This document shows positions 8,753-60,289 of a stretch of DNA of 64,000 bases, piece after piece. The notes beneath the pieces were generated by a model. The model made no database searches. It was not told where the DNA came from and was given only the letters and a program-made list of their open reading frames with translations. Numbering within the stretch: the stretch's first letter is position 1; each line of letters opens with the position of its first letter. The translations under genes and the position numbers were made by a program. This DNA is from a phage, in the sequence record PZ212788.1. One strand, given 5' to 3'.

Positions 8753-8781
8753 TTGCGTATTAACTCAAAATCTGGTAAAAT
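8753..8781 (+). promoter_or_regulatory. sigma70-like promoter with extended -10 (TTGCGT-17-TGgTAAAAT)
   Basis: -35 TTGCGT 8753-8758, 17 bp spacer, TGg TAAAAT 8773-8781; same TGnTAAAATA motif recurs at 14284, 20615 and 56290. Confidence 0.55.
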
Positions 8782-8812
8782 AGCTATCATGATTGTTTAA
8801 CCTGGAGGCACA

Positions 8813-9403
8813 ATGTTTTTATGGGAAAGGCCTAGATACCTTCCAGATATTAGATTAGAGCTGCTGGCAGATATTGTTACGTTTAAAAGTCCGTTTACAG
8901 GTAAAACGCAAAAAGTAACCTATGCCACACCTAACTGGAAAGGCACTTTGACGGTCTCCAATATCAGCGAATCCCAGTTGCTAGAGCTTAAGAGCTTTGT
9001 TGATCAGGTGTATAAAGATGGGAACATCTTTCTCATTAAAACTTACGGTCACTCAGTAACAGCTAATGAGCCAATCGCCCTTGGGCCTACTGGTAACGAC
9101 GATTTTTTGAAGACGGTCGGGTGGGAGCCAAACAGAGACATAGCCAGAGCTGGAGATAAAATATCTGTCAATGATGAATTGAAAGTGGTAACAGCTCCAG
9201 TGCGTAGTGATGGTGTTGGGTCTGCTGTTATAGGCATATCTCCAAGACTTAGAAAACCTATTGCCGCAGGGGACACCATGAAGATAATAACTCAATCTCC
9301 GAAGGGTAGGTTTCATATCAGAGATATTTATAAAATTAAGCAAAAAGTCGATGCTATGCAAAAAGGTGATAATATAGTTATCAACTTCTTTGAGGATTTC
9401 TAA
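8813..9403 (+). CDS. minor tail protein (possibly lambda gpM-like)
   Basis: 196 aa; FLW...TLTVS...LLELKSF segments loosely resemble lambda gpM; first gene after promoter, upstream of K-like and J-like genes. Confidence 0.3.
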   Translation: MFLWERPRYLPDIRLELLADIVTFKSPFTGKTQKVTYATPNWKGTLTVSNISESQLLELKSFVDQVYKDGNIFLIKTYGHSVTANEPIALGPTGNDDFLKTVGWEPNRDIARAGDKISVNDELKVVTAPVRSDGVGSAVIGISPRLRKPIAAGDTMKIITQSPKGRFHIRDIYKIKQKVDAMQKGDNIVINFFEDF

Positions 9404-10381: not shown

Positions 10382-13300
10382 TGCCAATTGCAATGATTGA
10401 TAACATCGTTGCTTCTGCAAGATCTTCAAGTTATGACTGGAACGCATCCAAGGCAGCTCTGGCTGACAGCCTGAACACTGTTACCACCAGAACTCTGGAT
10501 AAGATTTTTGAGGGCAACAAATCTTACAGAAGTCAGCAAGATAGACAAAAGCTTCTCAGATCTTCTGCTGCACCTTGCTCTGTAGTGTATGGGAAGACAC
10601 GCACATCTGGATTACTTGCGTTTTTGGAGCAGGACAGGGACAGGACCCTCCATTGTGCTATTGTTCTTGCCAATCATCCCCTGGAAGGTATAGAAGATAT
10701 ACTCATCGACGGTAATCCTATTTCCTCGTATGGAGATTTGATATCGTGGGAGCTACATAACGACAGAAAAACATCTGATCCTTTCATGGGTACACACTGC
10801 CCGTCGTGGTCACCAGACATGATAGGTAGAGGGATCAGTTGGCTACGTGCCAGCTTCAGGTTTGACCCTAACAAGTTCCCTTTTGGGTTGCCAAACGTTA
10901 CACTCGTCAAGGTTGGTAAAAAATGCTATGATCCTCGTATCAGTAAAGAGGTGTATACCAATAACGCGGCCTTGGTGATTCTAGACTATTTAAGAACGTA
11001 CCTTAAATGTCCTGACGAAACCATCAACTGGGAGTCCTTCAAGGAGGCTGCTAACATATGCGATGAGGCGGTAAGAAACGCGGACGGAACTAGTGAGCGC
11101 CGTTACACCATTAATGGTGAGTTCGATATGGATGAGGCCCCAGCAAGTATTATGGCAGAAATGCTGAAAGCTTGTGGTGCAGATCTCAGCTATGTAGCTG
11201 GTAAGTATGGACTGCTGGTAGGTGCATATTATGGTCCGGCAACAATGACACTGAGTGAGGACTGTGTCTGTGGTGAGGTTAAGATCTATCCGGAAGCCTC
11301 GTTTGACAAAAGATCCAACACAATAACTGGCAGATTCACCAGTCCGACTAAAGGGTATTCTGAAACAGATTTTCCATCAGTATTTGTCCCAGAGTGGATA
11401 GAGAAGGATGGAGAAAGAAAGATAATCGATATAGACTACCGCTTTGTTACCAGTCCTTACCAAGCTCAGCGTGTTTCTGCAATCTTCTTAAGACGTGCTA
11501 GAGCTGGCAGGATTATTGAAGTCACCTGCAATATGCGAGGTTTTAAATTTAAGCCTGGTAGTTACGTTACAATGGACCTTCCAAGTATTGGTATAGTGGG
11601 CCAAGAAATGAGGGTTCTTGAGTGGGAGTTCACTAAAAAGGGTGGTGTTAAGGTAAAACTTCGCCAAGATGCTAAAGAGTGGAATGATGCCACAGGGCAA
11701 CTTCCTGATTCCGGCGATGTAGATATTCCGATATCCCCGTCCGGTGTAGCTCAACCGCAAAACTTCAGATACTCCGTTCTCCAAGCTGGGGAAGTAACTC
11801 ACGGTGTTTTGGCTTGGGACAACGTTGGAACTTACGCTCAAAATATTGTGCAGGTAAGAAAGAACGGAGAGATTGTTTGGACAGCACAGACAGTTGAGCA
11901 GTTTGTCCGAGTAGAAGGCTTGACCAAAGGGTCATACACAGCAACCGTGGTTGCAACATCTTATAAAGGTGGTGTATCTCCAGAAGCCTACTGCGAGTTC
12001 AACATTCAAGCACCTGAAGCTCCTGTTTCTGTAGAAGTTAAGCAGGGATACTTTGCTATCACCTTGATTCCGCATAGTAGGGATTTAGCAAGTGTTAGCA
12101 CCCAGTATGACTTTTGGACATCCGGTATGACAAGGTTGCCAGACACCAGTGATGCAACCGTTACTTCAAAAGCCACCCGTATGGGTGTTGGTTCAACTTG
12201 GACATCTGAAGGTCTGCAGAACGATAAGATTTATTATTGGTATATTAGAACCACAAACGCTTTTGGTAGTTCTCAGTTTGTAGAATGCGCTGCACGCTGC
12301 TACACCTCTATTGAGGATTTGATGCCTCAGATAGATGCTGAATTCAAAAAGACAGAAACTTATAAAGAGTTGATGAGTACTTTGGATTCCTCTATTGAAG
12401 AGGTTGAAAATCGTGTCACAGAACTTAACAGGTACATGGATGGTAGGGTAGATGAAGCGTTCCAGCAACTTGGGGACAGAATAGGTGCGGTAGTTACAGA
12501 AACAACTCAGAAGTTTGAAGATGTCAATGGTAACATTACAGCGCTGGATAGGAAACTTGTTGCTGCACAGAACAAATTCACCAACGATCTGAACACTGAA
12601 AGTGGCAGACTGGCATCTCTGATCGAGACAACCAATAAAGCAACTACTGATCTTCTGAACAAAAAGACAGAGGCTTTAGATGAGAAATTGGTTGCCGCCA
12701 AAGGTGAGCTGGTAGAGCAGATAGAGGGAGTTGAGAGCGGGTATTTAGCCGGAGATAAAACTCTGGATGGTAAGATCAATACTCAGAGAACAGAACTTGA
12801 CGCAAGCATCTTGAGCACTAACCAGGCAACTGTGGATCTTTTGAACAGGACATCTGAAACTCTGGATCAAAAGATCAGTCAGACAAACGCGACGGTATCT
12901 AAAAACTATACCACCCTGGATGGCAAGATAACCACCGCAAAAACTGACCTCAACACCTTGATTGCCAATACCAACAAGGCCACCACTGACTTGTTGAATC
13001 AGAAAACATCTGCACTGTCAGAGCAGATAACTTCTGCACGTGGGGAGATTTCTACCAACAAGCAGGCGATTGATGCTTTGGATGGAAAACTGACTTCCAC
13101 AAAAACAGCGCTGGATGCTACAATTTCCGATACCAACAAAGCTACTGTGGACCTTATCAACGGCACAGCGTCAGCTATTCGTCAAGAACTTGCTGTTGCT
13201 AAGCAGGAGATCATTGATGATGTTGGGGATGTGTCCGAAATCAGGGCTGCAGTAGCTACAACATCTAAGGCTGTAACCGACTTAGAGGGTAAAGTAAATG

Positions 13301-16514: not shown

Positions 16515-18586
16515 TGGCAACAGCTGTTTTTAAACCTTACCGTGATTACTCTACAATGGCTGCACGGTTTCATTACCGAACAGTTCAGGATACTGCCGTT
16601 CCTGGTAGGGATTATGATCATGTTGAGGGCGATGTAACTATCCCAGTTGGGGCAACCAGTATTGAGATCCCCGTGGAAATTGTTGACAAATTACCCAACA
16701 GGTTGCCAAGAAGCTTCTTTATGGAGTTTTCATCAAAATCTCAAGGGGTGATGATTGGAACACAAAGGGCGAAATGTACAATAGTTTCAGATGAGAATCT
16801 TGACAGGATATCTTGGGATACTGTTGAGGAGAGAATGTTTCACCCAAGATATTGGGTTACAACCACTCAGCAGACTGAAAGTACCTGTATTGTTGCAGAT
16901 AACAACTGTTGTATTAACCGTTTAGTGTCAAGAACATATGGAGGTATGGCTGGGTGCATTTGGGAAACAGTTGACAAGTATGACCATTTCGGTATTGGGT
17001 TTGATGATCACTATGAGATGAGAAACACCAAGCTTTGGTTCAGAATGTCAATAACCAATGCCAGCAACTTCTCCACCCCTGAAAAGATGATTATGACTGT
17101 AGACCTTGTTGATGGCACAATCATCTATGTTCCTTTAGCTCAATATGCTGTCAGCATCTCAGAGGATAAGAATGTTGCAGAGATTCATATTGATTTCGAG
17201 GACTGCGTCGGGATGGATCAGAACAACAACATGATGGGTGTTGATCCTCGACAGGTGAGAAGGATTTTAATACCGCTTATGCCTAAAGACTGGGTAAGTA
17301 ATAGCACAGACCCGAGAACGGAAAATGTAGAGTGTGAGTTGCGCCTAGATCTGCTCCAGCCAGACACAGGCTGGAAAATGATGCAACTTAACAATATTCA
17401 GGTTAAAGAGCACGACGTTGGGATCTGCACCGCATATGACGATATGTGGAACGTATCTCCTTTAAGGGTGTTGAACAATATCAAGCGTCTGGGCTATACC
17501 GGAACCATAAACCATTATGTTGGTATGAGTCATTATTATGACTACACATGGTCAGGAACCCAATGGTCTATAAACAGAACAGGGGCGCTAAACGCTGCAG
17601 CTTATAAATGGCATGATGATTTTATGTACAATGCCAAACGACATAACTTCGACGTTATGCAATCTGTAAGTTTTGAGCTTTTCAGCGATGCCTGCCCGTT
17701 GGAATGGACCCAAAGAGACTGGAACGATAACTACGCTAAAACAGGGTATACACCCTGTAGCTACCTCCTGTCTCCAACCATTGAAGAGGGTATGAATTTC
17801 CTTACTGCAGTATTTAAGAATTTTGCATCAGCCGCTATGAGAAACAACCTGCCAGTGATTATGCAGGTTGGTGAACCGTGGTGGTGGTACAATACCGATA
17901 CTCGTAGACCTTGTATTTATGATTACCCTACAAAGCAGGCGTTTTATGATGAGACAGGTGAGTATGCATTAGATATTGGGACTATTGACGATCCTAAAAC
18001 TGGCGGTGTTTACGACAAGTATGTAGCATTTTGTCGTGGTAAGCTTGGCGCTCGTATTGCGGCTATTTCAAAGGCAATAAAGGCACACGCTGCATCAGCT
18101 CAGATGACAGCTTTGCTGTTTTTCCCAACCATCATGGAAACCGAGCTTACGCAAAAGCTGAACCTTGCTGACCAATATAAAAAGGAAGCAGGTGCTCTTG
18201 ATTTCTTCTGCACCGAGTGCTACGATTGGGTGATGCAGGGAGGTATTGAAAAGGCAAAAGAGTCTGTAAACATACCTATCGTTAAGTTAGGTTGGCAACC
18301 GTCTGAAATACAATACCTTGCAGGGTTCGTTCCTAGTAAAGAGCTTGCTCCGGTATATGGCTACGACCCAACCAGGAATTACCAAGAATTTTTATGGAGA
18401 TGTATCTGCGGAAACATGGCAACCATAGAGTATAGATACCCTGAGGTAAAACAGTATGTGTGGGCATACCCGCAAGTAATGTCTGACAGCATCACTGTTA
18501 CAGCCAGAGATTCTACCGTGCTTCATATGGGGCAGGTTGCTCTGAAAGGGTATGTAGAAGATGTTGTCCCTCCAGACTTCTCATAA
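16514..18586 (+). CDS. tail-associated protein with possible glycoside hydrolase (TIM-barrel-like) domain
   Basis: 690 aa; central region with FELFSDACP ... MQVGEPWWWYNT patterns reminiscent of acid/nucleophile strands of clan-A glycosidases; translationally coupled in tail operon. Confidence 0.35.
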   Translation: MATAVFKPYRDYSTMAARFHYRTVQDTAVPGRDYDHVEGDVTIPVGATSIEIPVEIVDKLPNRLPRSFFMEFSSKSQGVMIGTQRAKCTIVSDENLDRISWDTVEERMFHPRYWVTTTQQTESTCIVADNNCCINRLVSRTYGGMAGCIWETVDKYDHFGIGFDDHYEMRNTKLWFRMSITNASNFSTPEKMIMTVDLVDGTIIYVPLAQYAVSISEDKNVAEIHIDFEDCVGMDQNNNMMGVDPRQVRRILIPLMPKDWVSNSTDPRTENVECELRLDLLQPDTGWKMMQLNNIQVKEHDVGICTAYDDMWNVSPLRVLNNIKRLGYTGTINHYVGMSHYYDYTWSGTQWSINRTGALNAAAYKWHDDFMYNAKRHNFDVMQSVSFELFSDACPLEWTQRDWNDNYAKTGYTPCSYLLSPTIEEGMNFLTAVFKNFASAAMRNNLPVIMQVGEPWWWYNTDTRRPCIYDYPTKQAFYDETGEYALDIGTIDDPKTGGVYDKYVAFCRGKLGARIAAISKAIKAHAASAQMTALLFFPTIMETELTQKLNLADQYKKEAGALDFFCTECYDWVMQGGIEKAKESVNIPIVKLGWQPSEIQYLAGFVPSKELAPVYGYDPTRNYQEFLWRCICGNMATIEYRYPEVKQYVWAYPQVMSDSITVTARDSTVLHMGQVALKGYVEDVVPPDFS

Positions 18587-29657: not shown

Positions 29658-30065
29658 TCAGTCCTCGCATTTAACAAATTTTTCTATAGATCCACCAAGC
29701 ACAGCTTGTTGTTTGATGGCACTTTCTTCATCATAGTGGATAGACTTATGTTCCGTACCTCCAAACTTACCTGTGTGGAAGGTGTGCACCCAAATCTCTT
29801 TAGGAAGGGATTTATTCTCTTCCTCCACCAACTCCCACATACCCCACAAGTGATCTGTGATATCTCTGATGAAATATCCCTCGCCGAGGTTTGTATTCAC
29901 ACTGTAAGCTGATTCGTGATCTCCGCAAATATAACGGAAGGCAGTGTACTCTTTACCTGGTGTGAAGTGAGTATCCATTAGTATGGCTGTTAAAGAATAA
30001 GGGTCTCGAAAGCCCAAGAACTTTAGTTTAACAATTTCGACATTTACATCTGCAAGATTATCCAT
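29658..30065 (-). CDS. hypothetical protein
   Basis: Start trimmed to internal ATG (MDNLADV...) preceded by GAGGAG RBS. Confidence 0.4.
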   Translation of the reverse strand: MDNLADVNVEIVKLKFLGFRDPYSLTAILMDTHFTPGKEYTAFRYICGDHESAYSVNTNLGEGYFIRDITDHLWGMWELVEEENKSLPKEIWVHTFHTGKFGGTEHKSIHYDEESAIKQQAVLGGSIEKFVKCED

Positions 30066-30226
30066 GACGATCTCCTCTGTTTGGTTGGTGAGAATTATAT
30101 ATAGATCTGGTGGTGGTGTCAAGCTTAATTTTAAGAGATCTGAGAGGGTATTTTATTCAGGAAGGCAATCGCACAGGGTGGAGAAATTTATGAAGGCACA
30201 GGCCTCGTTTGAGGCCTTAAATTCTA

Positions 30227-47129: not shown

Positions 47130-47894
47130 TTGAAATTCATCTACAAAGAACACTACCACAAAGGTGTTGTGTGGAGTCTATTTGACGGGTCTGGTGGTGC
47201 AGTTATTGACTGGGCAAAAGCTGGGTACCTGTGCCTGTGCTTTAATGCAGAAGGTGCTGACCACGGCAGTTATGCAGAGGTGATAACCGATCATCCTAAC
47301 ATTCACTATGTGGATTATTGGATTGACCCATGGTTCCCTCAGGAAACTTTTTGCATGTATCCAGCTCCAGACTTTATTCTTGCATTTCCTCCGTGCACGC
47401 ATTTAGCGGTATCAGGTGCTGCACATTTTAAGAAAAAGCTGGCTAAGGATCCTTTGATCCAAATTAATGCTGTAAAGGATGCTCGGGTTGCGGAAGAGTT
47501 GGGAGAGATTTACGATTGCCCGTGGCATGTAGAGAATCCTGTAGGGGTTATGTCCACACTGTGGCGAAAACCTGATTACCGTTTTCATCCTTCGGATTAT
47601 GGTGGGTATTTACCGGAGGATGATGTAAACCCCTGGTTTCCTGAATTTATAGCTCCACGTGATGCCTATCCAAAAATAACTTGCGGCTGGATAGGCAATG
47701 GATTTATAATCCCGGCCACAAAACCTGTCCCGCAAATAGTTGACGCGGTTAGCGGGTATTCCATGCAACACGCCAAGCTGGGTGGAAAGAGTGCAAGAAC
47801 GAAGATGATCCGAAGCCTCACGCCACGTGGCTGGGCAAAAGCCGTATTCTTAGCAAACGAGCCTGTAGTAAGGAGCAGAATTAATGGGAAGTAA
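47130..47894 (+). CDS. C5-cytosine methyltransferase-like enzyme with variant catalytic motif
   Basis: Motif I SLFDGSGG, motif IV-like FPPCTH (PC-T instead of PCQ), motif VI-like HVENPVG; track ORF start lies inside the terminator, so start placed at TTG 47130 after AGGAGA. Confidence 0.5.
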   Translation: MKFIYKEHYHKGVVWSLFDGSGGAVIDWAKAGYLCLCFNAEGADHGSYAEVITDHPNIHYVDYWIDPWFPQETFCMYPAPDFILAFPPCTHLAVSGAAHFKKKLAKDPLIQINAVKDARVAEELGEIYDCPWHVENPVGVMSTLWRKPDYRFHPSDYGGYLPEDDVNPWFPEFIAPRDAYPKITCGWIGNGFIIPATKPVPQIVDAVSGYSMQHAKLGGKSARTKMIRSLTPRGWAKAVFLANEPVVRSRINGK

Positions 47895-49962
47895 ATTTAT
47901 GGCATCTGCATACAACCGTTTCGGTGAGCCAAACCCGAAAGCAACTAAGTATAAAAGTGGGGGAAGTGTGAAACGAGACTATCGTGATGAAAAAGAGGTT
48001 GAAACTGTAGAGACTGTTTTAGAAAATACTAAAATTGTCCCTGTCCCACAACAAAATATCGGTCTGATGGCTGCACAATATTTTGGTGTGCGATCAGCAT
48101 TGTCACAAGAAGACGGTGTGACAGTCACTGCAACATATTTCCCATATTACGACCGCTACGGAAATCTGTCCGGTTTCAAAAAGCGTGACTGGACTATTCC
48201 TAAAGAACAAAGGGGCCACTTCTCCGTTGTTGGCATCGTAAAGGCCAACTCCCAGATGTTTGGTCAAAAGCTGTGTGCATCTTCCAACAACCGTAAGCAG
48301 ATTAACGTTTGTGAGGGAGAAGGTGATGTTATTGCAGCATGGCAGGCTGCATATCAGATACAAGTAAAAGGGATTCTCACCAACGCTAAAGCCCCGGCAA
48401 AGGTGAAGCAGTGGGCTAAAGAGGTCCAGGACGGGATCGACGCAGTTATCAACGGTGGTGATCTGGCAGGAAAACCCTGCCTGCCTTTTGTTGGAATTAA
48501 CTGTGGATGTGCAAACGCAGTAGATACTTTTGCAAACAATGAGAAGTTTATCCGTAGCTATGGAACAGTTGTGCTGGCAATGGATAACGATGCAGCTAAC
48601 GAGGTAGAGAAGCAAAAACACGTCATTAAAGGTGTTGAGGCCACGCACAATATCGCAGCATTTTTGATGGCTGATAACGTTTACCACGTAGAATACCCTG
48701 GTGAAGTAAATGACCCTGACGGGGTAAAAGATATCCGTGACATGCTGAAGGCTAAAAAGCTGGAAGATATTGTCAACATGTTCCGGCATCCTGTTAAATA
48801 TGTGCCTGATGCTGTGTCGGACTTAGAAGACTTCTCTATCGAGTCTTTGCGGAAAAAGACTTCCAACGGGGTAGATATCAGCGCAGAGTTCCCAAAACTG
48901 CAAAAAATGCTAAAAGGCTTGCACAAAGGGACACTCGTAATGCTTACAGGTCCATCAGGCGGTGGTAAAACAACCGTGGCTAAAAAACTGGAACACTGTA
49001 TTGCAAGATATCTAATGGACCCGACATGCCCGAAGGCTGATGACTATGAAGAGGATGATCGTCTATGTATGATCCATCTTGAGGAGGACCCAGAGGAAGC
49101 AATTAACTCCTTGTATGCAAACCAGTTAGGGTTTGATGTTAAAGAGTTTGTTGAAGATCCTAGCCAGTTTTTAACTGATCAAGAACACGCAGAGATTCAC
49201 CAATCATGGGCAAAAGCTGGAAAAATCAAAGTGTTCAAACATTTCGGATCTATTCCGGTGGACGAGTTGATTACTAAGCTTAAGCAAATGGTTTGCCTGT
49301 ACCATTGTCGTTATATTGTGCTGGATCACCTGTCCATGGTAATTTCAGGGCTTAATGTTAAAGATGAGCGAAAAGAACTGGACATGGCTATGACCCAACT
49401 GGCTGCGTTTTGTAAGCAGTTTAACGTGTTTATCTTGGTGATCGCTCACCTCAAACGTACAGAGATTGTGCCTCCTAAGGACAAGGATGGTAACCCATTA
49501 CCTTTCTGGTATCCTGTGCGAAAAGAGAATTTGCGAGGATCGGCTGGGCTTGAACAGTTGAGTTGGGTAGTCATAGGTGTCGAGGCCGAAGAAATGGTGG
49601 ATCGTTCTCGTGGGCGTGTCCGTCTGGTAGGTCTTAAAAACCGTCCAGCAAAAACTTTAGGTATTGCTGACACTTTAGTTATGGATCCGCATACAGGTAA
49701 GTTCCATGATGCCAGTAATTGGTACTGGGACAAAGAAATGCAGATGTTTACAGACGGAGAAGGTGGGGAGGTTGTTTGGAGACCTCAGGCCATGTTTGAG
49801 GACCAAGAGCATGCAGTTGTAGAAACACCTATGGGCAAGGTTGTAGCCGATAAGGTTGTAACTCCTACTATTAAGCCTGTTGACACGCAGGAAGACCTCC
49901 AGTACGATGATCCATCCTCTGACCCGGTCCCTGGTTTTGAGGATGATGAAACGCCTTTTTAA
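47884..49962 (+). CDS. DNA primase-helicase (TOPRIM primase plus DnaB/T7 gp4-like helicase)
   Basis: TOPRIM motifs NVCEGEGDVIAA and LAMDNDAANE; Walker A MLTGPSGGGKTT; acidic C-terminus ending DDETPF. Confidence 0.8.
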   Translation: MGSKFMASAYNRFGEPNPKATKYKSGGSVKRDYRDEKEVETVETVLENTKIVPVPQQNIGLMAAQYFGVRSALSQEDGVTVTATYFPYYDRYGNLSGFKKRDWTIPKEQRGHFSVVGIVKANSQMFGQKLCASSNNRKQINVCEGEGDVIAAWQAAYQIQVKGILTNAKAPAKVKQWAKEVQDGIDAVINGGDLAGKPCLPFVGINCGCANAVDTFANNEKFIRSYGTVVLAMDNDAANEVEKQKHVIKGVEATHNIAAFLMADNVYHVEYPGEVNDPDGVKDIRDMLKAKKLEDIVNMFRHPVKYVPDAVSDLEDFSIESLRKKTSNGVDISAEFPKLQKMLKGLHKGTLVMLTGPSGGGKTTVAKKLEHCIARYLMDPTCPKADDYEEDDRLCMIHLEEDPEEAINSLYANQLGFDVKEFVEDPSQFLTDQEHAEIHQSWAKAGKIKVFKHFGSIPVDELITKLKQMVCLYHCRYIVLDHLSMVISGLNVKDERKELDMAMTQLAAFCKQFNVFILVIAHLKRTEIVPPKDKDGNPLPFWYPVRKENLRGSAGLEQLSWVVIGVEAEEMVDRSRGRVRLVGLKNRPAKTLGIADTLVMDPHTGKFHDASNWYWDKEMQMFTDGEGGEVVWRPQAMFEDQEHAVVETPMGKVVADKVVTPTIKPVDTQEDLQYDDPSSDPVPGFEDDETPF

Positions 49963-50020: not shown

Positions 50021-50755
50021 ATGAACGAGTTCAGAGATCACTGTGTAGCCAATCACTTGTGGTCAGAAATATTGGAGTATGACGGTCAAAATCTTTTTTG
50101 GAAGATAGACATTCTGGCAGGTAGCGGTGTAGGATATGTTAAAACTTCAGCAGGCTCCAGAGCCGACAAGGGGCAAGATGCTGATGGCAGGCCTGTGGTT
50201 AGCCTAGGAAAGCATTGCACTAAAGGTGCCCACGTCATAATTTGGGAAATGTTTAACGGTCCTGTACCGGAAGGGTATGAGGTTGACCACATCAAGGAGA
50301 TAAGGGAAACAGGTGGTGTGGCTGATAACAGTATTCAAAATTTGCAACTACTCGAGCCCACAGATAACAAAAAGAAAAGTTGCAAGATACCTCGTAGCAA
50401 CAACAAATCTGGCAGGGTCGGGGTGCACTATTCTGAAGAAAGAGAGGCATGGGTAGCTCAAGGCACAGACTCTGTAGGGGAAAGGGTCTGGCTAGGCCAG
50501 TACAGAACTTTCGAAGAGGCAGAGTGGGCAAGAAAGTTCTTCGAAGATAATGGTTTTTCGCACAAGAGTGGAAGAGCCGTGCAGTATAATAACACCAGCG
50601 GTTGCTCAGGGGTGAATTGGGATAAAACCCATGAGAGATGGGTAGCCAGAATTTATGTAGATGGTAAAAGGAAATGCCTTGGGTATTTCAAGAATAGGGA
50701 CGATGCAATAGCTGCAAGAAAGAATGCTGAGAAGAAACAGGAGGAGACAGTATGA
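50021..50755 (+). CDS. HNH homing endonuclease with tandem AP2-like DNA-binding domains
   Basis: HNH core around GYEVDHIKEI; two AP2-like repeats (SGRVGVHYSEEREAWVAQ..., SGCSGVNWDKTHERWVARIYVDGKRKCLGYF). Confidence 0.65.
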   Translation: MNEFRDHCVANHLWSEILEYDGQNLFWKIDILAGSGVGYVKTSAGSRADKGQDADGRPVVSLGKHCTKGAHVIIWEMFNGPVPEGYEVDHIKEIRETGGVADNSIQNLQLLEPTDNKKKSCKIPRSNNKSGRVGVHYSEEREAWVAQGTDSVGERVWLGQYRTFEEAEWARKFFEDNGFSHKSGRAVQYNNTSGCSGVNWDKTHERWVARIYVDGKRKCLGYFKNRDDAIAARKNAEKKQEETV

Positions 50756-53529
50756 GTAATTGGTGCTTCGATCTGGAGGCCTCCGGGCTTTTGGAAGACC
50801 CAGATCTTTATTATCACTGCGGCCTGTTTAAAGAGCTGAATAAGAACCGTTTTATGCTGTTCCTTCCTCTAAATGACCGCACACACTACTCCGAGGAGGA
50901 TATAGAAAAGGCTAAGAACTTCATTCTGGCAAAGAAAACTCTTTATAAAGATTTTGAAGTTCGCATAGCAGATTTTTCAGAGTTGGAAGGTTGGCTTACA
51001 GGAAATTCTGACTGGTCACCAACAGCTTTGAACTGCCATAACTGCTACAGTTATGACTTTATGCTGATGGAAAGATTATCTGGTATTCATTTTGATATGT
51101 TCCGTGATCCTAAATGTATGGGGACTATCAACGATCACCAGGTTAACCTGTTTGATACGTTGGCGATGAGCCGAATCTTGTGGCCTGATCGCCCTTTACC
51201 AAAAGGTTGTCCGGACTCTGTATTCAACCCGGTTACTAAGAAAATGCAACCTGTTGGTCCTCACGGCCTTATGGCATGGGGCTACGCCCTTGGTAACCAG
51301 AAAGTTCAAATTGATGACTGGCGCGATCTTCCGTTGTGGAAGTATGTGGATCGTGTATTCGAGGACGTTATCATCCAGGAGCTGCTCTGGAAAGAGCTGG
51401 TAGCGGAATCAAAAGGTGTATTCTACGGCAAATCTGACATGCAGAACTTTATGTACGATCCAGCCAAAGAGAAGCCGAAAGGGTTCAAGAAAATCACCTG
51501 GAAGAACGCATTACGCCGAGGCATGCTGCAGCACTTCCTGATGGAGCTGCAGGCCCGTCAGGGTGTGTATTTCGACATAGATGGGGCTATTGCTTTACGT
51601 GACCGTTGCGATGCGTGGATGAAAGAGATCGCTGATCGTGTTGAACCTCAACTTCCTTTAAAAGAGTTGTCAATGTCTCAGCGGCCCAAGTTCCCTGAAA
51701 AGCCGTTTAACCAAGATGGGACAATCTCCAATAATGGTTGGAAATGGTTAAAAGATAAGCTTGGCTATCCTGTAGACATGAGCGCTTTAGAATTCAAAGC
51801 CCCGCCTAAGCGAGCATTTACCTCCACAGGAGATGTCAGCAAGATGGGGATAAAATGGTGCGAAGAGATGGGCTGCAAAGACCCCGACAAGATGGCTGAT
51901 TTCTTGAGAGGTTATATTAAGGGCACCTCCACACCACAACCTTTACCTAAAGAGCTGATGGATCAGGCAATAAGTGATCTGCAGCAGAAGCGAATGCCTG
52001 ACTGCAAGATACCTATGAAAATCAGCAATCAGGACGACATTAAGCGATACCTGATCAGTGCTGGTTGGCTCCCAACAATGTGGAGAACTAAGGATGTAAC
52101 TAAAGACAGCAAGAAGAAAGCTCTACCTGATGCAGATGTTGATGCACGAGTGTATGCATATATGGACGAGCTTTTAGAGTCAGAGTATTGTGACCTAATT
52201 ATCAACTTCTGGAACAAAACTGATGCTAAGTTCCAGACAACCGTGCACAAGTTCCGAAGCTTTCCTAACTCCGAAAGGATTAAAAAGGAAGTATTCGGGA
52301 AAATACGTAGAAAAGCTAGGGCACTTATTACTTCTCCGCAACTGAAAGATACGTTTGGACACCTATGCCCGAATCTTGAAAAATTGAACGGAGAGATGGC
52401 TAAAGATATCGTCTTGTGGTTATCATTGCGAAACCGCAGATCGGTCCTTGATCCAATTAAGGAGGATAAGGTTGATACTGGTCTTCTTAATCACCCACGT
52501 TTGAAGATTGACCATAAGCTTCCTGCTAAAAGCTCTGGATTAACAAACACTTCCAGACAGAAACACAGTATTTGTGCAAACATGCCTAAACCATCTCCTA
52601 AAGTGGTTATGGGTAAAGAGATGCGTAGTCTGTGGGGTGTTCCTCCGGGATACTTTGAGATCGGTATTGACGGGTCCAACTTAGAGCAGCTTATCGGGGC
52701 TTGGGGTGCCTTTGAGTTCGACAACGGCTTGTATTATGATGTTGTAAGTAACGGAGACGCACACCAAAACAATGCTGAGGCATATACAAAAGTGGCAGGC
52801 AGAGAGGTGTCCCGTAACGACGGTAAACCTATCACGTATGGGGTTATGTACGGGGCACAAAAAGATAAAGTTGCAGATATGCTGGACATCTCCCCAGAGT
52901 TGGGACAAAGGGTAATCGATGCACTCTGGGATGCCAACCCAGGTCTTAAGGGGCGCAAAGAGGATCTGGAGAAATTCTGGGAAGCAACAGGTAAGAAGTT
53001 TATCTACTCTTTTGATGGTCATGCTATCTGGACCCGATCTAAACACTCTTTACTTAATGCATACCAACAAAATGGCGGTGCATCGTTGTGTGACTTAGTT
53101 GGAATACTCATGCACCACCAGATGGTGAAGCGTGGGTGGTACGATGAAGGTGTTCGTCGTATTATCTATTACCATGACGAATATCAGCTTCAAGTCCCTG
53201 ACACACCGAAGTATAAGACTGTGTACACCTTCGACACAATCGAAGAACTGGAAGCATTTAAGGCAGAGCAGGAGGCCAAACTTCATGTGTTCGACGGTCA
53301 TAAGTACAAAAAGGCACGCAAGGATGAGGACGGAAACGAAGTGGTTGACAGAGACGGAAACACGGTGTACGATCCTATCCTGAATGATGACGGAAAGCTT
53401 GAACTTATCTGGAGCCCTGTGGGTGAAATGGTGGTGCATTGCTTCTGGCAAGCTTCTAAAATGATGGGCGTCCCGTTCCAGATCACAGGTGAATACTTGT
53501 GTGGTCGTAATTGGGGCGATTGTCACTAA
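50752..53529 (+). CDS. DNA polymerase, family A with 3'-5' exonuclease domain
   Basis: Exo I FDLEASGL; motif A-like IGIDGSNLEQLIG; motif B-like R..GKPITYGVMYGAQ; motif C YYHDEYQL. Confidence 0.8.
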   Translation: MSNWCFDLEASGLLEDPDLYYHCGLFKELNKNRFMLFLPLNDRTHYSEEDIEKAKNFILAKKTLYKDFEVRIADFSELEGWLTGNSDWSPTALNCHNCYSYDFMLMERLSGIHFDMFRDPKCMGTINDHQVNLFDTLAMSRILWPDRPLPKGCPDSVFNPVTKKMQPVGPHGLMAWGYALGNQKVQIDDWRDLPLWKYVDRVFEDVIIQELLWKELVAESKGVFYGKSDMQNFMYDPAKEKPKGFKKITWKNALRRGMLQHFLMELQARQGVYFDIDGAIALRDRCDAWMKEIADRVEPQLPLKELSMSQRPKFPEKPFNQDGTISNNGWKWLKDKLGYPVDMSALEFKAPPKRAFTSTGDVSKMGIKWCEEMGCKDPDKMADFLRGYIKGTSTPQPLPKELMDQAISDLQQKRMPDCKIPMKISNQDDIKRYLISAGWLPTMWRTKDVTKDSKKKALPDADVDARVYAYMDELLESEYCDLIINFWNKTDAKFQTTVHKFRSFPNSERIKKEVFGKIRRKARALITSPQLKDTFGHLCPNLEKLNGEMAKDIVLWLSLRNRRSVLDPIKEDKVDTGLLNHPRLKIDHKLPAKSSGLTNTSRQKHSICANMPKPSPKVVMGKEMRSLWGVPPGYFEIGIDGSNLEQLIGAWGAFEFDNGLYYDVVSNGDAHQNNAEAYTKVAGREVSRNDGKPITYGVMYGAQKDKVADMLDISPELGQRVIDALWDANPGLKGRKEDLEKFWEATGKKFIYSFDGHAIWTRSKHSLLNAYQQNGGASLCDLVGILMHHQMVKRGWYDEGVRRIIYYHDEYQLQVPDTPKYKTVYTFDTIEELEAFKAEQEAKLHVFDGHKYKKARKDEDGNEVVDRDGNTVYDPILNDDGKLELIWSPVGEMVVHCFWQASKMMGVPFQITGEYLCGRNWGDCH

Positions 53530-53578
53530 TGTAAACTATCAACACATGGAAGTGTTGTTGAGCAAAGAGGAGACTTTT

Positions 53579-53863
53579 ATGGTAGTAGAGCCAACAAAAA
53601 CATTTACATCCATGACCATTCCTGTTATTATGCAGGTGGAGTGTGTTCAGGTATCTCAAGTGTGGCCTGGCACCAAAATCCCAACAGGGCCTGATTTCTT
53701 TCAGGTTGGGAAAGTGTACAATGTCTGGAAGGCACCAGATTGTTACCCTTTCATTAAAGATGACCGTGGGATGCTGTGGTATCTTGGAAATGACTTGACA
53801 CTGCACCTTGGGAATGCTATTATTGCAGTATTCAGACTTAACAAGAAGGAGACCGATCAATGA
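53579..53863 (+). CDS. small protein, member of a local paralogous family
   Basis: Start trimmed to ATG 53579 (AAGAGGAGA RBS); contains FIKDDRGMLWYLGND matching the family (K/E)DD.G..W motif. Confidence 0.45.
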   Translation: MVVEPTKTFTSMTIPVIMQVECVQVSQVWPGTKIPTGPDFFQVGKVYNVWKAPDCYPFIKDDRGMLWYLGNDLTLHLGNAIIAVFRLNKKETDQ

Positions 53864-54087
53864 CGACTTTGGTTAAAGCTACCTTTGTAGAAGAAAAGAT
53901 GACAGACCTGTCATTCTTTAAAGAAGGAAAGACCTACGAGGTTTATTACGATAAAGCTCGTGCAAACAAAATGATTAAAGACGAGGAAGGGGTTGCCTGG
54001 TATATCTCTCACCTGGCAAACGGTGAGTATCATATCTACGGAACCACTTTGCTTGCCAAGTTTGTAGTTGTTGAAGAGGACCTATGA
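53860..54087 (+). CDS. small protein, paralogous family member
   Basis: 75 aa; MIKDEEGVAWYISHLANGEY. Confidence 0.5.
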   Translation: MTTLVKATFVEEKMTDLSFFKEGKTYEVYYDKARANKMIKDEEGVAWYISHLANGEYHIYGTTLLAKFVVVEEDL

Positions 54088-54278
54088 AAGTAAAGTATCT
54101 TGCTGAAGGTATGAATAGGTATTTTACCCTTGGGGAAGAATATTGGCCCTTTACAAACAACGGTGATGTCTACGTGAAAGATAATTTCGGCACGCCGTGG
54201 TTTCTGCACTCTAATGGGCTGGGATACTCCATTTACTGCGGTGCAGTGAACAACACAACTCTTGCAGAGTTCGTTTAG
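54084..54278 (+). CDS. small protein, paralogous family member
   Basis: 64 aa; YVKDNFGTPWFLHSNG. Confidence 0.45.
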   Translation: MKVKYLAEGMNRYFTLGEEYWPFTNNGDVYVKDNFGTPWFLHSNGLGYSIYCGAVNNTTLAEFV

Positions 54279-54288
54279 AGGAGGTAGG

Positions 54289-54660
54289 ATGTTAGTAAAA
54301 GGTACCCACACAGTCAAACAACGTATTGAAGTTGAGATTGATGATTGTGAGCTGAAGCATATTTTACGGTCATGCTCCAACGTTTTGCTCCTTAGTATTC
54401 TTCAGGAGCGAGCGGAGAACGAGTTCTTAAATGCATTGGCAGGCCGTCCCGGTGACTTCTGTGTGCGTAAGCGTGGTGACAACAAGTCGTGGTTGTGGGA
54501 GATCGATGCCGACTGGGATTACCACAAAAATGAGGGTATAGATGAGCCTATTCGTGAACTGACGGACAAAGAGATTCAGATGTACAATGAAGTTTGTCAT
54601 TGGGCAACACGCCAACAAATTTACCTAGACCCTGTGTGGCTGATTGAAAATAGTCGTTGA
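54289..54660 (+). CDS. hypothetical protein
   Basis: Start trimmed to ATG 54289 (GAGGAGG RBS). Confidence 0.4.
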   Translation: MLVKGTHTVKQRIEVEIDDCELKHILRSCSNVLLLSILQERAENEFLNALAGRPGDFCVRKRGDNKSWLWEIDADWDYHKNEGIDEPIRELTDKEIQMYNEVCHWATRQQIYLDPVWLIENSR

Positions 54661-54736
54661 CAAGAAGTAAGGTTAGATGTAAGATACTCCTCACAAACAG
54701 AGTATTGATTGTTAAATAATTAAGGAGACCTCTAAG

Positions 54737-54991
54737 ATGAAAATCATGTTGAAACCAGAATGCGTTGCAAACGACCGAGCTTTTAAAGATTGCACACTTG
54801 GCGCTACTTATGAAGCAGAGTTTTGTGAGAACCCTTTGGTAAAAGCCCTTTTGGAAGAAGGGGCCCCTCTATCACAAGAAGAGCTTGATGAGCTGGAAAA
54901 CTCAGCACAGTGCCTTACCTTTAAAGATGATGAAGGAGACTCTGTCTGGTGCACTGTTAACGAAGTAGTTTTTGTAAAAACTGAACATTAA
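54737..54991 (+). CDS. small protein, paralogous family member
   Basis: 84 aa; KPECVANDRAFKDCTLGATYEA ... FKDDEGDSVWCTVNEV, clearly alignable with 55055 ORF. Confidence 0.5.
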   Translation: MKIMLKPECVANDRAFKDCTLGATYEAEFCENPLVKALLEEGAPLSQEELDELENSAQCLTFKDDEGDSVWCTVNEVVFVKTEH

Positions 54992-55054
54992 TACTTGACA
55001 ACAGCGATAGGACCTAATACAATGGTCCTATCAAAACGAAAGGGGACCACAGCA

Positions 55055-55315
55055 ATGACCAAACAATATCAACGAATTAAAGCCAAGGTTAAGCCAGACT
55101 ATCTAGAGAAGGACTCTGCTTTTCGGGACTGCACAGCTGACAAAGTTTACACAGGGGCCGTCCTGTTGAACGATAAACTTGAAGTAGATGTGCTGGGTAA
55201 AGAGGCCGTTATCGAGGATGACAACGGTGACTGTGTTTTCTGCACCACACGAGAGCTAGAAGTCTTAGAATATTTCGGTGAAATCTTCAACTCCTTAGAC
55301 GACGAGGAAGCGTGA
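55055..55315 (+). CDS. small protein, paralogous family member
   Basis: Start trimmed to ATG 55055; KPDYLEKDSAFRDCTADKVYTG ... IEDDNGDCVFCTTREL. Confidence 0.5.
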   Translation: MTKQYQRIKAKVKPDYLEKDSAFRDCTADKVYTGAVLLNDKLEVDVLGKEAVIEDDNGDCVFCTTRELEVLEYFGEIFNSLDDEEA

Positions 55316-55704
55316 TGAAAAATATTTGGGATATCGATATCTTTGAAGCCTCTAAGCTTGACGGTGCTGATGGAGTGATTATGGTGTCTGATGGCAAGGC
55401 AACACTAACTTCCGGAGATATCATCTATGCCTTGGACGAGCTGGCGCTTCTGAAATCTACCGGTAACACTTTGGAGGAGCGTCTTCAGGGATTCGCTTTC
55501 AAAGAAGGTACAAATACAGCCATGATGTGCACCACACGGACAGTTCAGGTTGGTAACGGTGTCTATATGATTATTGCTGTGTGTCCTAAATTCAGCAACG
55601 TCAACAAAGATGATGCTGACGCGGTCAACGATGTGGTTGTTCTCTTCGTGGGTGACGCTATGGCAGATCTGATGAATGCAGGAGAAGCAGCAAATGAAGA
55701 CTGA
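55315..55704 (+). CDS. hypothetical protein
   Basis: Start at ATG 55315 overlapping upstream stop. Confidence 0.4.
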   Translation: MKNIWDIDIFEASKLDGADGVIMVSDGKATLTSGDIIYALDELALLKSTGNTLEERLQGFAFKEGTNTAMMCTTRTVQVGNGVYMIIAVCPKFSNVNKDDADAVNDVVVLFVGDAMADLMNAGEAANED

Positions 55705-55996
55705 AAACATCACCCCAGCAGGGTTCTTAAAAGTATACCGTGAACTGCTATATACTACAGAGGACAGTGTTCTAGAGTATCCAGAATATCTTTTGCTGTA
55801 TAAGTATCTGCAGGAGGCTGGTGAAAATCTGCCAGTTAGTGCAGAAGGTGGTCCAAACTGGATATACAGCGCATGGAGAAAGGTTGACATTCTCCCAGAC
55901 CCAGGTAAAGATATGGTAGTTTGGCAGCTTATCAACAACATCGGGATTCCAATCTTTGATGAAGCTGTTAAAATCTATTTTGAACTTGACGATTAA
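55694..55996 (+). CDS. hypothetical protein
   Basis: Start trimmed to ATG 55694 with AGGAGA RBS. Confidence 0.4.
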   Translation: MKTENITPAGFLKVYRELLYTTEDSVLEYPEYLLLYKYLQEAGENLPVSAEGGPNWIYSAWRKVDILPDPGKDMVVWQLINNIGIPIFDEAVKIYFELDD

Positions 55997-56013
55997 TATC
56001 AGGAGACCTTAAG

Positions 56014-56259
56014 ATGACTGAAGCAGTTGCTCGCGCAGGACAGAAAGTACGTTGTGTTGAAGTAGGTTTTGGTGGCAAAGGGTGTCAAAACTTGACTCAA
56101 GGCAAGGAATATGCTGTTATCTCTGGTGGTGGCGACGAAAGTATTGTGTTCGAGGGCCACATCCTGGATGCTGAAAACTTTGAAATCTTTGACGACGATG
56201 GGGATCCGATCACCTGCCTGCTGGACGGGAATTGGGGAACTTTCGAAGTGATTGGCTAA
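56014..56259 (+). CDS. small protein, distant paralogous family member
   Basis: 81 aa; IFDDDGDPITCLLDGNWG; CAGGAGA RBS. Confidence 0.4.
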   Translation: MTEAVARAGQKVRCVEVGFGGKGCQNLTQGKEYAVISGGGDESIVFEGHILDAENFEIFDDDGDPITCLLDGNWGTFEVIG

Positions 56260-56269
56260 CAAATACCTA

Positions 56270-56298
56270 TTGTAATTTACAGAAGGGGATGCTAAAAT
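56270..56298 (+). promoter_or_regulatory. sigma70-like promoter with extended -10 (TTGTAA-17-TGcTAAAAT)
   Basis: -35 56270-56275, TGc TAAAAT 56290-56298, followed by AG as in the other TAAAATAG promoters. Confidence 0.5.
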
Positions 56299-56342
56299 AG
56301 TGTCTCCTTCTATGTTGTTCAAATAAAATCGGAGATTCCATA

Positions 56343-56711
56343 ATGGAACAAATGAACGATCAAGAGTCGGTTGCGATGAACGAGCAAGAACAACCTCAAG
56401 AATTTTTCTTAGGGTTAAGTAAAGATCAAGTGTCTCTTTTGCTAGTGCTTTCTTCTTTCATGGGAAGACTTCAGGAGCTCACACAACAACCGGAGGCTGA
56501 ACAATTATTTCAGGCTCTGCGTGAAGAAGAAAAATATCGTCGTTTGGACTATGCCTTAGGTTGGGTAGCTCAACAACGAGATATGTTGATGGCCCTCTCT
56601 GGGACCACAAGTTTTGCAATGGGCCTGTTGGCTCAAGTTCAGGACAAATTAATTCAAGCAGGGTTTGCACACACGGCAAACACTAACGAAGAACAAGGAG
56701 ACAAAGAATGA
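56343..56711 (+). CDS. hypothetical protein
   Basis: 122 aa ORF. Confidence 0.4.
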   Translation: MEQMNDQESVAMNEQEQPQEFFLGLSKDQVSLLLVLSSFMGRLQELTQQPEAEQLFQALREEEKYRRLDYALGWVAQQRDMLMALSGTTSFAMGLLAQVQDKLIQAGFAHTANTNEEQGDKE

Positions 56712-57979
56712 GCGTTATTCAACAATTCGCTAACCCGATGAATCCGCGTGAAACTGTTTTACTGGCTCACGGCATGATTAAACGCGTCAGCATCAAGCCT
56801 ATCAAAGGTGCTGATCCTACAACAGGTATTAAAACCACTGTGTGGCAAGGTAAGAAAATTGAGTCCAGCCACACCATCTCTTTACTGATTTCTGAACTGG
56901 ATTCCTCTGATAACCTACTTCAAGGTGGTGAAGAAGTTTGGATCAGTATGGGCGATAAGCTGCTTAAACCGGGTCATCAAGACTCTGTCTCTGTTAAAAT
57001 TGATGACAAGTGGGAAACCGTAACGCCAGGATGGATCGTAAATATCCCTTTGAAGGCAAACGAGCATAACGGTAAGACCTACTACAAAGGCTCACTGGCT
57101 AAGATGGTTAAGCTGGGTGCAGGAGAGGCTCCAGCAGCGACTCAGCAGCAAAAACAGCAACAAGGTGCACAATCACAAGGCCAGAAGCAGAAACCTCAGC
57201 AGAATGCCAATCAGGACGTTTTACGCATCTATGGTGATGTGACTCAGATTGTTGGCAACGTGGTTACTGTTAATGACCACAAGATTGGCGAAGGTGCTAT
57301 GGTTGTAACTGATGAGCAGCTTAAAGACCTGGTGGTAGGTGGTCGTGTTGCAGCCATTGTTGACAAAGACACCGGAAACATTATCAGTGGTTTCAAAGCC
57401 TATCCTCCTAAGGCAGAGAACGGCACTCAAGGCTCTGGTGGCAAGCGTAAATCCTCTTACGACCCTATCGGTGTGGAGACGGGACATAGCATCAATGCGT
57501 TGCAGATCATCCTGGATCGCGGGTTTAAGGTAGACGACCCACTGGGCGTGGCTAAAACACTGCACGTAGTCACCATTGAGCTTAAGAAAGAGTATGCTCA
57601 AGCCACCAACCGAACTGAAGATGAAGTAGGTGCCAGTGTCGGTAATGCGGTGTTGAACGCTTGTCGCCGTATTGACAAGAAAACGAAAGTTGATGATTTT
57701 GCAGTGGCAATTACTGCAGAAGCAAAAGATGTCTTGACTAATCTAGCTGAGCCGTTGTACGATTGGATCAAGAACGGTGCTGAGTCCACTGACCATCAAG
57801 AACCTCAGGCTGCCAAACAGGAAGCAGCTCCACAGCAAAACACTGTAGACGCTCCTCCTGTAAATGATGGGGAAGATGACCCGATGGATCAGAATCCAGC
57901 ACAGTATGACTTCTGTGATGACATACCTTTCGCTCCGGTGGGTTTGCAATATGGAAAAAGCAGAATCCACGCATTGTAA
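56708..57979 (+). CDS. single-stranded DNA-binding protein-like, with internal acidic DDIPF motif
   Basis: Gln-rich linker ([26 protein letters not shown]) and acidic region ...[19 protein letters not shown] typical of SSB C-terminal tips, but followed by 15 extra residues before the stop. Confidence 0.5.
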
Positions 57980-59415: not shown

Positions 59416-59841
59416 ATGATCTATGAAATGCCAAAACTGATTCGTGACGATGCCCAAAACGCCCACACCTTTATCATGGGCAAGCGCATGGATATTATTT
59501 GTCATAAAGATTTCTGGGAAGGTAGTTACTTCACAGAATATTTTGGTAAACTGGATAATGGTCTGCTGATCCAGTTCTACACCGATGCGGAAAACAATAT
59601 CTGCTGGGAGTTCGAAACTGAAGATATCCATAAACTTTTCACCTTCCTAGGTATTAAGGTTGAGGCCAAGTTTGAAGAAGGCGAGTGCGACGATTGTGGA
59701 TTCTACGAGGTAACAGATTTCTATCTCCCAAGTGGTGAGAACCTTTACTATGAAAGCCACTTCGGCAACTCAAATATGCCACAAGGTTGGGATGAGTTTT
59801 TTGAAATTGCGGAAGAGGAGCTGACATACCGTGATTATTGA
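59416..59841 (+). CDS. hypothetical protein
   Basis: 141 aa ORF with GGAGAA RBS. Confidence 0.4.
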   Translation: MIYEMPKLIRDDAQNAHTFIMGKRMDIICHKDFWEGSYFTEYFGKLDNGLLIQFYTDAENNICWEFETEDIHKLFTFLGIKVEAKFEEGECDDCGFYEVTDFYLPSGENLYYESHFGNSNMPQGWDEFFEIAEEELTYRDY

Positions 59842-60289
59842 TACTGTAGCGGGAGATTTAATCTCCCTTTTTAAGAGCGGTGCTGGTCACCTGATCCACG
59901 GTTGTAACTGCTTTCATACAATGGGTGCAGGCATAGCGAAAGATATTGCCCGTGAGTTCCCTCAAGCACTGGCAGCCGACAAAGAGACTGCCTATGGTAA
60001 TCTGGACAAGCTGGGTATGTTTTCTTGTTGGGAGCATTTTGCCAAGAACAGGGTCGTATATGGAATCAACCTGTATACCCAGTTCTACCCAGGGCCCAAT
60101 GCTGAATACTTCTCAATAATGAAAGGTTTTGAGCGAGTCAACGAGGTATTCAAAGGTGTGTCATTGCCGTTCTACATTCCTAAAATTGGATGCGGTATTG
60201 GCGGTCTAAAGTGGGAACATGTAGAAGATGTAATTAATCTTGCAACCACAGATATTGATGTGGTTGTAGTAGAGTACAAAAAGTGTTGA
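59831..60289 (+). CDS. macro domain protein (ADP-ribose binding/processing)
   Basis: HLIHGCNCFHTMGAGIAKDIA matches the macro-domain NAAN..L..GGGVA.AI region; later KIGCGIGGLKWEHV matches the G.GI.G motif; GTG start. Confidence 0.6.
   Translation: MIIDTVAGDLISLFKSGAGHLIHGCNCFHTMGAGIAKDIAREFPQALAADKETAYGNLDKLGMFSCWEHFAKNRVVYGINLYTQFYPGPNAEYFSIMKGFERVNEVFKGVSLPFYIPKIGCGIGGLKWEHVEDVINLATTDIDVVVVEYKKC

Follow-up and report, generated by a model that had tools for sequence, protein, structure and literature searches.

In sequence record PZ212788.1, of which a stretch of 64,000 nucleotides (the window) was analyzed here, the family-A DNA polymerase gene is followed by ten small genes, six of which (called A to F below) had been described in an earlier note on this DNA as a tandem array of paralogues. 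By profile comparison A, B, C and F are members of one sequence superfamily, D and E are paralogues of each other and likely distant relatives of the other four, and the B protein is strongly predicted to fold like Gp54 of phage Bas11, a rare six-stranded beta-barrel. Our confidence in the identity, the family structure and the predicted fold of these genes is high. Positions 53400-56400, the region compared, identify the stretch as the genome of a Vequintavirus, an rV5-like phage of E. coli: identity over them is 99.6% to Escherichia phages SophiaRose, A6-1 and MaxTheCat (Bas57), and 97.7% to rV5.

Sequence families among the six genes

The ten genes are annotated as hypothetical in relatives (rV5 gp219 to gp210, bas57_0075-0084) and are labeled here in the order of their starts: A (53579..53863, 94 amino acids (aa), rV5 gp219), B (53860..54087, 75 aa, gp218), C (54084..54278, 64 aa, gp217), X (54289-54660, interspersed between C and D), D (54737..54991, 84 aa, gp215), E (55055..55315, 86 aa, gp214), Y (55312..55704, + strand, 130 aa, gp213), Z (55694-55996, gp212, also interspersed), F (56014..56259, 81 aa, gp211) and G (start at 56343). 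Genes A to F all lie on the + strand and within bas57_0075-0083. The earlier note's six open reading frames (ORFs) are indeed where it placed them, downstream of a polymerase gene that ends at 53529, and each of their starts is preceded 5-10 nt upstream by a GGAG-type ribosome-binding site.

Smith-Waterman alignments compared with 500 shuffles gave z values of 11.7 for D-E, 10.7 for A-B and 6.2 for B-C, with A-C weak at 3.5, and every pair drawn from different groups (A-B-C, D-E and F) had a z value below 2.3. Thus the alignments on which a six-member family would depend beat shuffled controls within these groups and fail to do so between them. Comparison of orthologue profiles with hhalign gave the same picture, with P values of 5.7e-6 for A-B, 9e-5 for B-C and 8e-8 for D-E, and at least 0.01 for all remaining pairs, including the controls X, Y, Z and G; cross-matches in PHROGs also fall into A-B-C, D-E and F. 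Orthologue-level sequence comparisons alone therefore give three groups and do not show the six to be a single paralogous family.

F was joined to A, B and C as follows. When 1.84 billion representative proteins were searched exhaustively by HMMER with the A/B/C profile, only ten matched, and in four of these (the metagenomic proteins P0071-P0074, 181-571 aa) the A/B/C domain occurs 2-5 times in tandem, which shows it to be an autonomous module; these proteins have the same domain as A, B, C and F but carry its copies fused in one polypeptide rather than in separate genes. A profile was built from the repeat units of P0071-P0074 alone, with no PZ212788.1 sequence in it. In hhalign this repeat profile matched A/B/C with a P value of 1.2e-10 and F with 2.5e-7, and a profile of A/B/C plus the repeats matched F with 1e-7. 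When it was run against the 476 six-frame segments of at least 50 aa in the window, the top four were C (1.3e-7), A (1.7e-6), F (2.4e-6) and B (6e-6), with the next segment at 1.6e-3, and in hmmsearch the four proteins had E values of 2.4e-7 to 1.5e-3. From these matches we take F to be a genuine distant member, and by these profiles A, B, C and F are one sequence superfamily (GKEY..DD.G) with the consensus 'v..C....fT.GKEY.V....v.DD.G...w....f.v'. Within it A has a 35-aa N-terminal extension, B is the central A/B/C member, and F (PHROG 4927) has a longer beta2-beta3 insert.

Two further sequences touch on this superfamily. In P0067, a 116-aa variant of gene A, some 11 residues (KAPDCHPFIKE / KAPNCYPFIKDD) are duplicated in tandem within the protein, immediately ahead of the DD.G hairpin. 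An ORF at 29658..30122 on the - strand (135-154 aa, PHROG 15992) contains the motif HFTPGKEYTAF...YFIRD, ranks 5th of the 476 segments with the repeat profile (P value 1.6e-3) and has an E value of 0.086 with the family hidden Markov model (HMM); judged from its sequence, it may be a further diverged family member outside the array.

Predicted folds and comparison with Gp54

Structure models were made for B and E. The AlphaFold2 model of B, made without templates from a nine-row alignment that included A and C, has six strands and a long loop at residues 11-24, with a predicted local distance difference test (pLDDT) score of 85.1 and a predicted template modeling (pTM) score of 0.72. It is a strong predicted match to the rare six-stranded barrel of Bas11 Gp54 (PDB 9AXB). 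The AlphaFold2 weights are older than the 2024 deposition. The predicted fold shows the Gp54-type topology, a six-stranded beta-barrel with a prominent beta1-beta2 loop, and it also falls in the SH3-like small beta-barrel class, whose marks are a closed small barrel of five or six antiparallel strands and structural matches to SH3, KOW or FeoA-type domains. E is predicted to be a five-stranded SH3-like barrel followed by an acidic C-terminal tail. The earlier note had regarded unrelated predicted folds as evidence against a family; both models are barrels that carry the shared motif at equivalent positions, and they differ in strand number.

Gp54 has a six-stranded barrel of rare topology with a prominent beta1-beta2 loop, its nearest fold being SH3 (PMC11578894). 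It is bound directly by the immunity protein CapRelSJ46 through the pseudo-zinc-finger domain of the latter, and binding involves partial unfolding and beta-sheet augmentation (PMC11578894). It is non-essential and of unknown function, and is known solely as a trigger; its authors speculate that it may inhibit another defense system (PMC11578894). Its close homologues in Bas5, Bas8, Bas10 and SECphi27 do not activate CapRelSJ46 (PMC11578894).

How closely does B resemble this protein? Like B, Gp54 of Bas11 (PF25180, 'Phage antiviral trigger protein Gp54') is small (66 aa) and standalone, and has a six-stranded barrel with a long beta1-beta2 loop (predicted for B); there is faint collinear sequence between the two, with FxxG at beta2 and GxxW at beta4, and the gene for Gp54, like those described here, belongs to a series of small genes, one of which codes for a GKEY..DD.G protein. 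An HMM of the Gp54 family (five T1-like homologues) placed B first of 691 six-frame segments of the window, at a non-significant E value of 0.069, and in hhalign the two align collinearly over 44-48 columns with P values of 0.003-0.013. On the other side, there is no significant sequence match between the two proteins (16% identity), Gp54 lacks the DD.G hairpin motif of the PZ212788.1 proteins, its homologues are confined to T1-like Drexlerviridae unlike the Vequintavirus genes, and PZ212788.1-type genomes differ from Gp54 phages in carrying several diverged copies each. Searching the sequences of PDB chains with F and with the A/B/C and D/E profiles brought up no meaningful match, and none of the six received a name indicating function from Pfam, NCBIfam or PHROGs.

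Relationship of D and E to the other four genes

D and E are clearly similar to each other, and the N-terminal block KP(E/D)..AF(K/R)DCT..Y that the earlier note had seen in both is real; D differs in having a 16-residue acidic helical insertion. But do they belong with A, B, C and F? Singly, E and D matched the repeat profile with P values of 0.025 (rank 9 of 476) and 0.027 (rank 11 of 476). A joint D/E profile gave sub-threshold P values of 1.3e-3 against the repeats, 5e-3 against A/B/C plus the repeats and 2.6e-3 against F, and the alignments from these three independent profiles always span beta2-beta4. Among the 691 segments, the best non-self matches of the D/E HMM are the neighboring genes Y and F. 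The earlier note's motif, which is present near the C-terminus of all six proteins, when written as a regular expression had six matches in the same 691 segments, all of them A to F, and 0.8 ± 1.0 in shuffles; because the expression was composed post hoc, this count speaks to exclusivity within the 64 kb and not to significance. In the models the G-K/x-x-Y element opens beta2 (B residues 23-26, E residues 29-32) and the D-D/E-x-G element forms the beta3-beta4 hairpin (B residues 41-44, E residues 55-58).

From these sequence and model comparisons we consider D and E to be likely true distant relatives of A, B, C and F, with a probability near two in three. The alternative is that only A-B-C(-F) and D-E are families, and that the motif shared across the two sets arose by convergence of SH3-like barrels upon a Gly-x-x-Tyr strand start and an Asp-Asp-x-Gly hairpin turn, in which case there is no six-member array. 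The cross-group statistics are all weak (z values below 2.3, P values of 1e-3 to 5e-2), E and D are 9th and 11th among the segments, and the PHROGs cross-matches never join D/E to A/B/C/F, all of which favors convergence. Convergence accounts less well for three independent profiles that agree in aligning D/E from beta2 to beta4 at P values of 1-5e-3, for Y and F heading the D/E HMM's non-self matches, for a motif found nowhere else in 64 kb and placed alike in the two models (B and E), and for the genes being adjacent and on the same strand; we judge it unlikely, with a substantial minority chance. The claim of six paralogues is borne out to this extent: A-B-C and F make up one superfamily and D-E a pair. 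The link between the two is plausible but, at P values of about 1e-3, below threshold.

Two of the interspersed ORFs, Y and Z, had been called unrelated. This is so for Z, a member of Pfam DUF7238 (E value 3.4e-7, above the cut-off) and PHROG 1451, which is unrelated to the barrel family. For Y there is a weak and unproven link to D/E (hhalign P value 0.017; best non-self match of the D/E HMM at an E value of 0.79), and it is possible from its sequence that Y is a very distant D/E relative. Y and E also have in common 'CTTR' plus an 11-nt identity (TGCACCACACG). In the metagenomic protein P0045 (131 aa), the N-terminal part of E continues in frame into the C-terminal part of Y, with the join at 'CTTR'; from the sequence this looks like the product of a microhomology deletion, and it hints at a remote kinship of Y with D/E.

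Conservation of the small genes

Every genus member that was fetched (rV5, MaxTheCat, FV3, JEP1 and isim, and HMD-6 as far as its record extends) has all ten genes, and A to F are 85-100% identical across these phages. When phage genomes were searched by tblastn with B, E and F (A, C and D having no separate query), 116 records contained B and E, and of the 136 records matched by F a similar number belonged to the genus; outside the genus these searches found no B or E, and for F only weak matches with E values of 0.01-0.9. Nonsynonymous to synonymous substitution ratios (dN/dS, Nei-Gojobori, against diverged genus members) are 0.01-0.27 for all ten genes, with gene A at 0.01. The ten small genes thus encode real proteins under purifying selection.

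The paralogous copies are about 30-37% identical. Recent amplification was rejected, since identity between the copies is no more than about 30% and each of them is fixed in the genus; as judged from the sequences, the array is an ancient tandem duplication that has since been kept intact. The local amplification and divergence that had been proposed is therefore upheld as an old event and not as a recent one, and a fast-evolving accessory locus of the arms-race type is not the pattern seen, given the conservation of the copies and their low dN/dS.

Sister genera have a related polymerase (60-66% identity over the C-terminal 399 aa), and no family members were found in the 8-kb polymerase flanks of Klebsiella phage KP12, Salmonella phage SalP219, Proteus phage Mydo and Erwinia phage pEp_SNUABM_01. 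Word-indexed protein searches with B, D+E and F matched solely same-genus relatives at 75% identity or more, so these searches gave no deep alignments.

Related small barrels in other phages

Foldseek comparison of the B model with BFVD returned dozens of small uncharacterized proteins of enterobacterial phages with TM values of 0.7-0.8, mostly from T1-like phages and often several per genome. One match, which folds like B with a TM value of 0.69, is A0A6B9X1Z6 of Escherichia phage isim (78 aa, 'putative minor capsid protein'). Its gene lies outside the array downstream of the polymerase, so Vequintavirus genomes may carry more copies of the fold at other places.

In the 20 kb of Bas11 that were scanned, the A/B/C-plus-repeats profile matches bas11_0041 with an E value of 2e-4, and the family profile also matches bas11_0048 and bas11_0061. 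The protein bas11_0041 is a true DUF7244 protein (E value 1.7e-26) of the SH3 clan, and its gene precedes the holin gene. The tuinn_38 gene of phage tuinn, which directly adjoins the gene for the Gp54 homologue, encodes a clear GKEY..DD.G member (E value 1e-10 in a 20-protein set). T1-like phages have several small proteins of the GKEY..DD.G type, encoded at 8760-8930, 12579-12944 and 17370-17555 of the Bas11 locus (L010), at 1501-1910 of the tuinn locus (L013) and at 1707-1940 of that of FSL SP-126 (L015). Tandem or scattered sets of such barrels may be common in Drexlerviridae.

DUF7244 is a standalone SH3 protein, modeled as a five-stranded minimal SH3, that lies next to the Drexlerviridae lysis cassette and for which a role in lysis has been proposed (PMC13164509). 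The six resemble it in being standalone small barrels (DUF7244 is about 56 aa) and in motif style ('KVKCVE...Y..G.VY......YKIKDESG'), and differ in that all fall below the Pfam cut-off and lie in the replication module rather than beside holin or endolysin genes. Against PF23896 (DUF7244), F scored 14.5 bits (E value 0.039; the cut-off is 27 bits) and the other five proteins had no match; P0073 also has a faint DUF7244 match.

Possible functions

Except for A (6.5), the six proteins have isoelectric points (pI) of 4.1-5.1, and inspection of their sequences found no signal peptides or export signals. Genes A to F are located in the rV5 non-late transcription unit, and sigma-70-like promoters are predicted on the + strand at 54657..54685 in the X-D gap (TTGACA-17-TAAGAT, annotated as P220 in rV5) and at 54995..55023 in the D-E gap (TTGACA-17-TACAAT, 11/12 matches); both the unit and these sites are consistent with the earlier note's placement of the array in an early region. 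Just after F, at 56281-56311, there is a 14-bp stem-loop with a weak T-tract, overlapped by a promoter-like site at 56270-56298, and it may mark a transcript boundary between F and G.

By analogy, the reading that we favor, and to which we give an even chance, is that the six are small protein-binding adaptors made together with the replication genes, each paralogue with its own partner. It follows from the fact that the sole experimentally characterized protein with this fold, Gp54, binds protein by partial unfolding and beta-sheet augmentation; protein binding, host targets and expression timing are all things that we infer. The block of ten small genes would be co-transcribed with the replication genes, and each of the six would be an acidic, cytoplasmic, standalone single-domain adaptor of the SH3-like barrel class that clamps its partner by beta-sheet augmentation and its flexible loop, as Gp54 does on the pseudo-zinc-finger domain of CapRelSJ46. 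A, B, C and F would have the six-stranded Gp54-type barrel with its long beta1-beta2 loop, and D and E the SH3-like one. Different paralogues would engage different conserved host proteins, for takeover of the cell or modulation of its immunity, and as a by-product the barrel proteins could be sensed by host immunity. Host proteins are in our view the likeliest partners, but this is the more tentative part, with less than an even chance. Ksap1 and Ksap2, which are sensed by KpAvs2, are likewise small, genus-conserved proteins of unknown function to which an immune sensor binds directly; the parallel is one of category alone.

Several observations weigh against the adaptor reading. Strict genus-wide conservation and purifying selection are unlike the patchy occurrence of anti-defense genes, and a partner inside the phage would fit them equally well. 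None of the six matches PF25180 (Gp54) at E values up to 1, the cut-off being 27 bits and Gp54 itself scoring 116 bits, and the similarity to Gp54 is that of one predicted model (B) built from a 9-sequence alignment. The promoters are consensus predictions with no overall enrichment (19 found, 13.3 ± 3.8 expected), and no data on the function or expression of these genes came up in literature searches.

Since strict conservation and low dN/dS suit conserved partners, it stays alive, at something like half the weight of the favored reading, that the barrels are accessory factors of phage replication or nucleotide metabolism and bind phage proteins, such as the polymerase, the primase-helicase or the 423-aa protein encoded beyond the block, instead of host proteins. 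The genes follow those for the primase-helicase and the polymerase and precede the 423-aa gene, stop/start overlaps (ATGA at both A/B and B/C) suggest that A, B and C are translationally coupled, copies are kept in every genus member at very low dN/dS (gene A in particular), and the gene for the multi-repeat relative P0073 lies on a phage-like contig among nucleotide-metabolism and ArdA genes. But sister genera have the same polymerase without these genes downstream, so they are not a required part of that replisome, and the nearest structural relative, Gp54, is non-essential and has a host immunity protein as its only known partner. The predicted Gp54 fold of B, the binding of Gp54 to an immunity protein and its authors' speculation about an inhibitor (PMC11578894) could also mean that the paralogues are dedicated anti-defense inhibitors, each directed against a specific bacterial immune system. 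This we think improbable, as there is neither presence/absence variation nor raised dN/dS within the genus, literature searches turned up no reported function for the genes, and Gp54 is known solely as a trigger. The host-interaction or anti-defense association made in the earlier note thus keeps circumstantial support from the predicted fold of B, and the strict conservation argues against a classic patchy anti-defense locus.

We give very little credence to the six being DUF7244-like SH3 proteins of cell-wall lysis or nucleic-acid-binding barrels of the Sm, KOW or Tudor type. What speaks for this is the faint DUF7244 similarity of F and of a repeat protein, DUF7244 being an SH3-clan family that adjoins the Drexlerviridae lysis cassette. 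The scores are far under the cut-off, however, and the neighbors are not holin, endolysin or spanin genes but those for the primase-helicase, the polymerase, small hypothetical proteins and the 423-aa protein, so that the genes lie in a replication module with no lysis genes beside them. A lysis or cell-wall role was rejected on account of this gene context and the absence of export signals, and nucleic-acid binding on account of the acidic pI values, which argue against it.

A broader extension of the adaptor reading is speculative, and we think it doubtful: Vequintaviruses would carry a battery of Gp54-fold 'clamps', 4-6 per genome and possibly more elsewhere, each tuned to a different host sensor or housekeeping target, and the tandem genes, the T1-like pairs of Gp54 and its neighbor and the metagenomic polyproteins of 2-5 repeats would be three forms of one widespread and so far unrecognized phage effector superfamily doubling as triggers of CapRel-type systems, in the manner of pathogen-associated molecular patterns (PAMPs).

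Flanking genes and database records

Upstream of the small-gene block are a DnaB-type primase-helicase gene (47884-49962), an HNH-AP2 homing endonuclease gene (50021-50755) and the polymerase gene (50752-53529), which is uninterrupted, encodes 925 aa and directly precedes gene A; at the far end lies the conserved 423-aa gene (56708-57979). The HNH-AP2 gene overlaps the start of the polymerase gene by ATGA. In relatives the polymerase is arranged differently (gp223 plus gp220 in rV5, a two-piece join in MaxTheCat, an HNH gene inside in FV3 and isim), so this locus appears to be a hotspot of homing-endonuclease or intron polymorphism. Farther downstream, a Tk.4-like gene at 59831-60289, called 'phosphatase' in the rV5 annotation, has a partial Macro-domain match (E value 1e-5). 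Sixteen GenBank 'Campylobacter phage' records (MG0656xx, e.g. MG065644 and MG065659; host Campylobacter jejuni) are 97-100% identical to this region, which suggests that these deposits are mislabeled or contaminated.

Implications

These genes have long been annotated as encoding hypothetical proteins; what is new is how they group into families, that four of them are linked to multi-repeat proteins, and that a Gp54-type fold is predicted in Vequintavirus. In place of a recently amplified six-member array, they form an old and stable set of at least two sequence families. Gp54 has so far been an orphan, its rare barrel known just as the CapRelSJ46 trigger. If proteins of rV5-type phages have the Gp54 fold, then that fold is not a T1-like curiosity but belongs to a broader family that has been tandem-duplicated and fused. 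If this is true, 4-6 hypothetical genes in more than 100 genomes of therapeutic-candidate coliphages would gain a structural class and a testable hypothesis, that of protein clamps which may be sensed by immunity proteins, and a second well-sampled phage group would supply natural variants with which to probe what Gp54-like proteins do.

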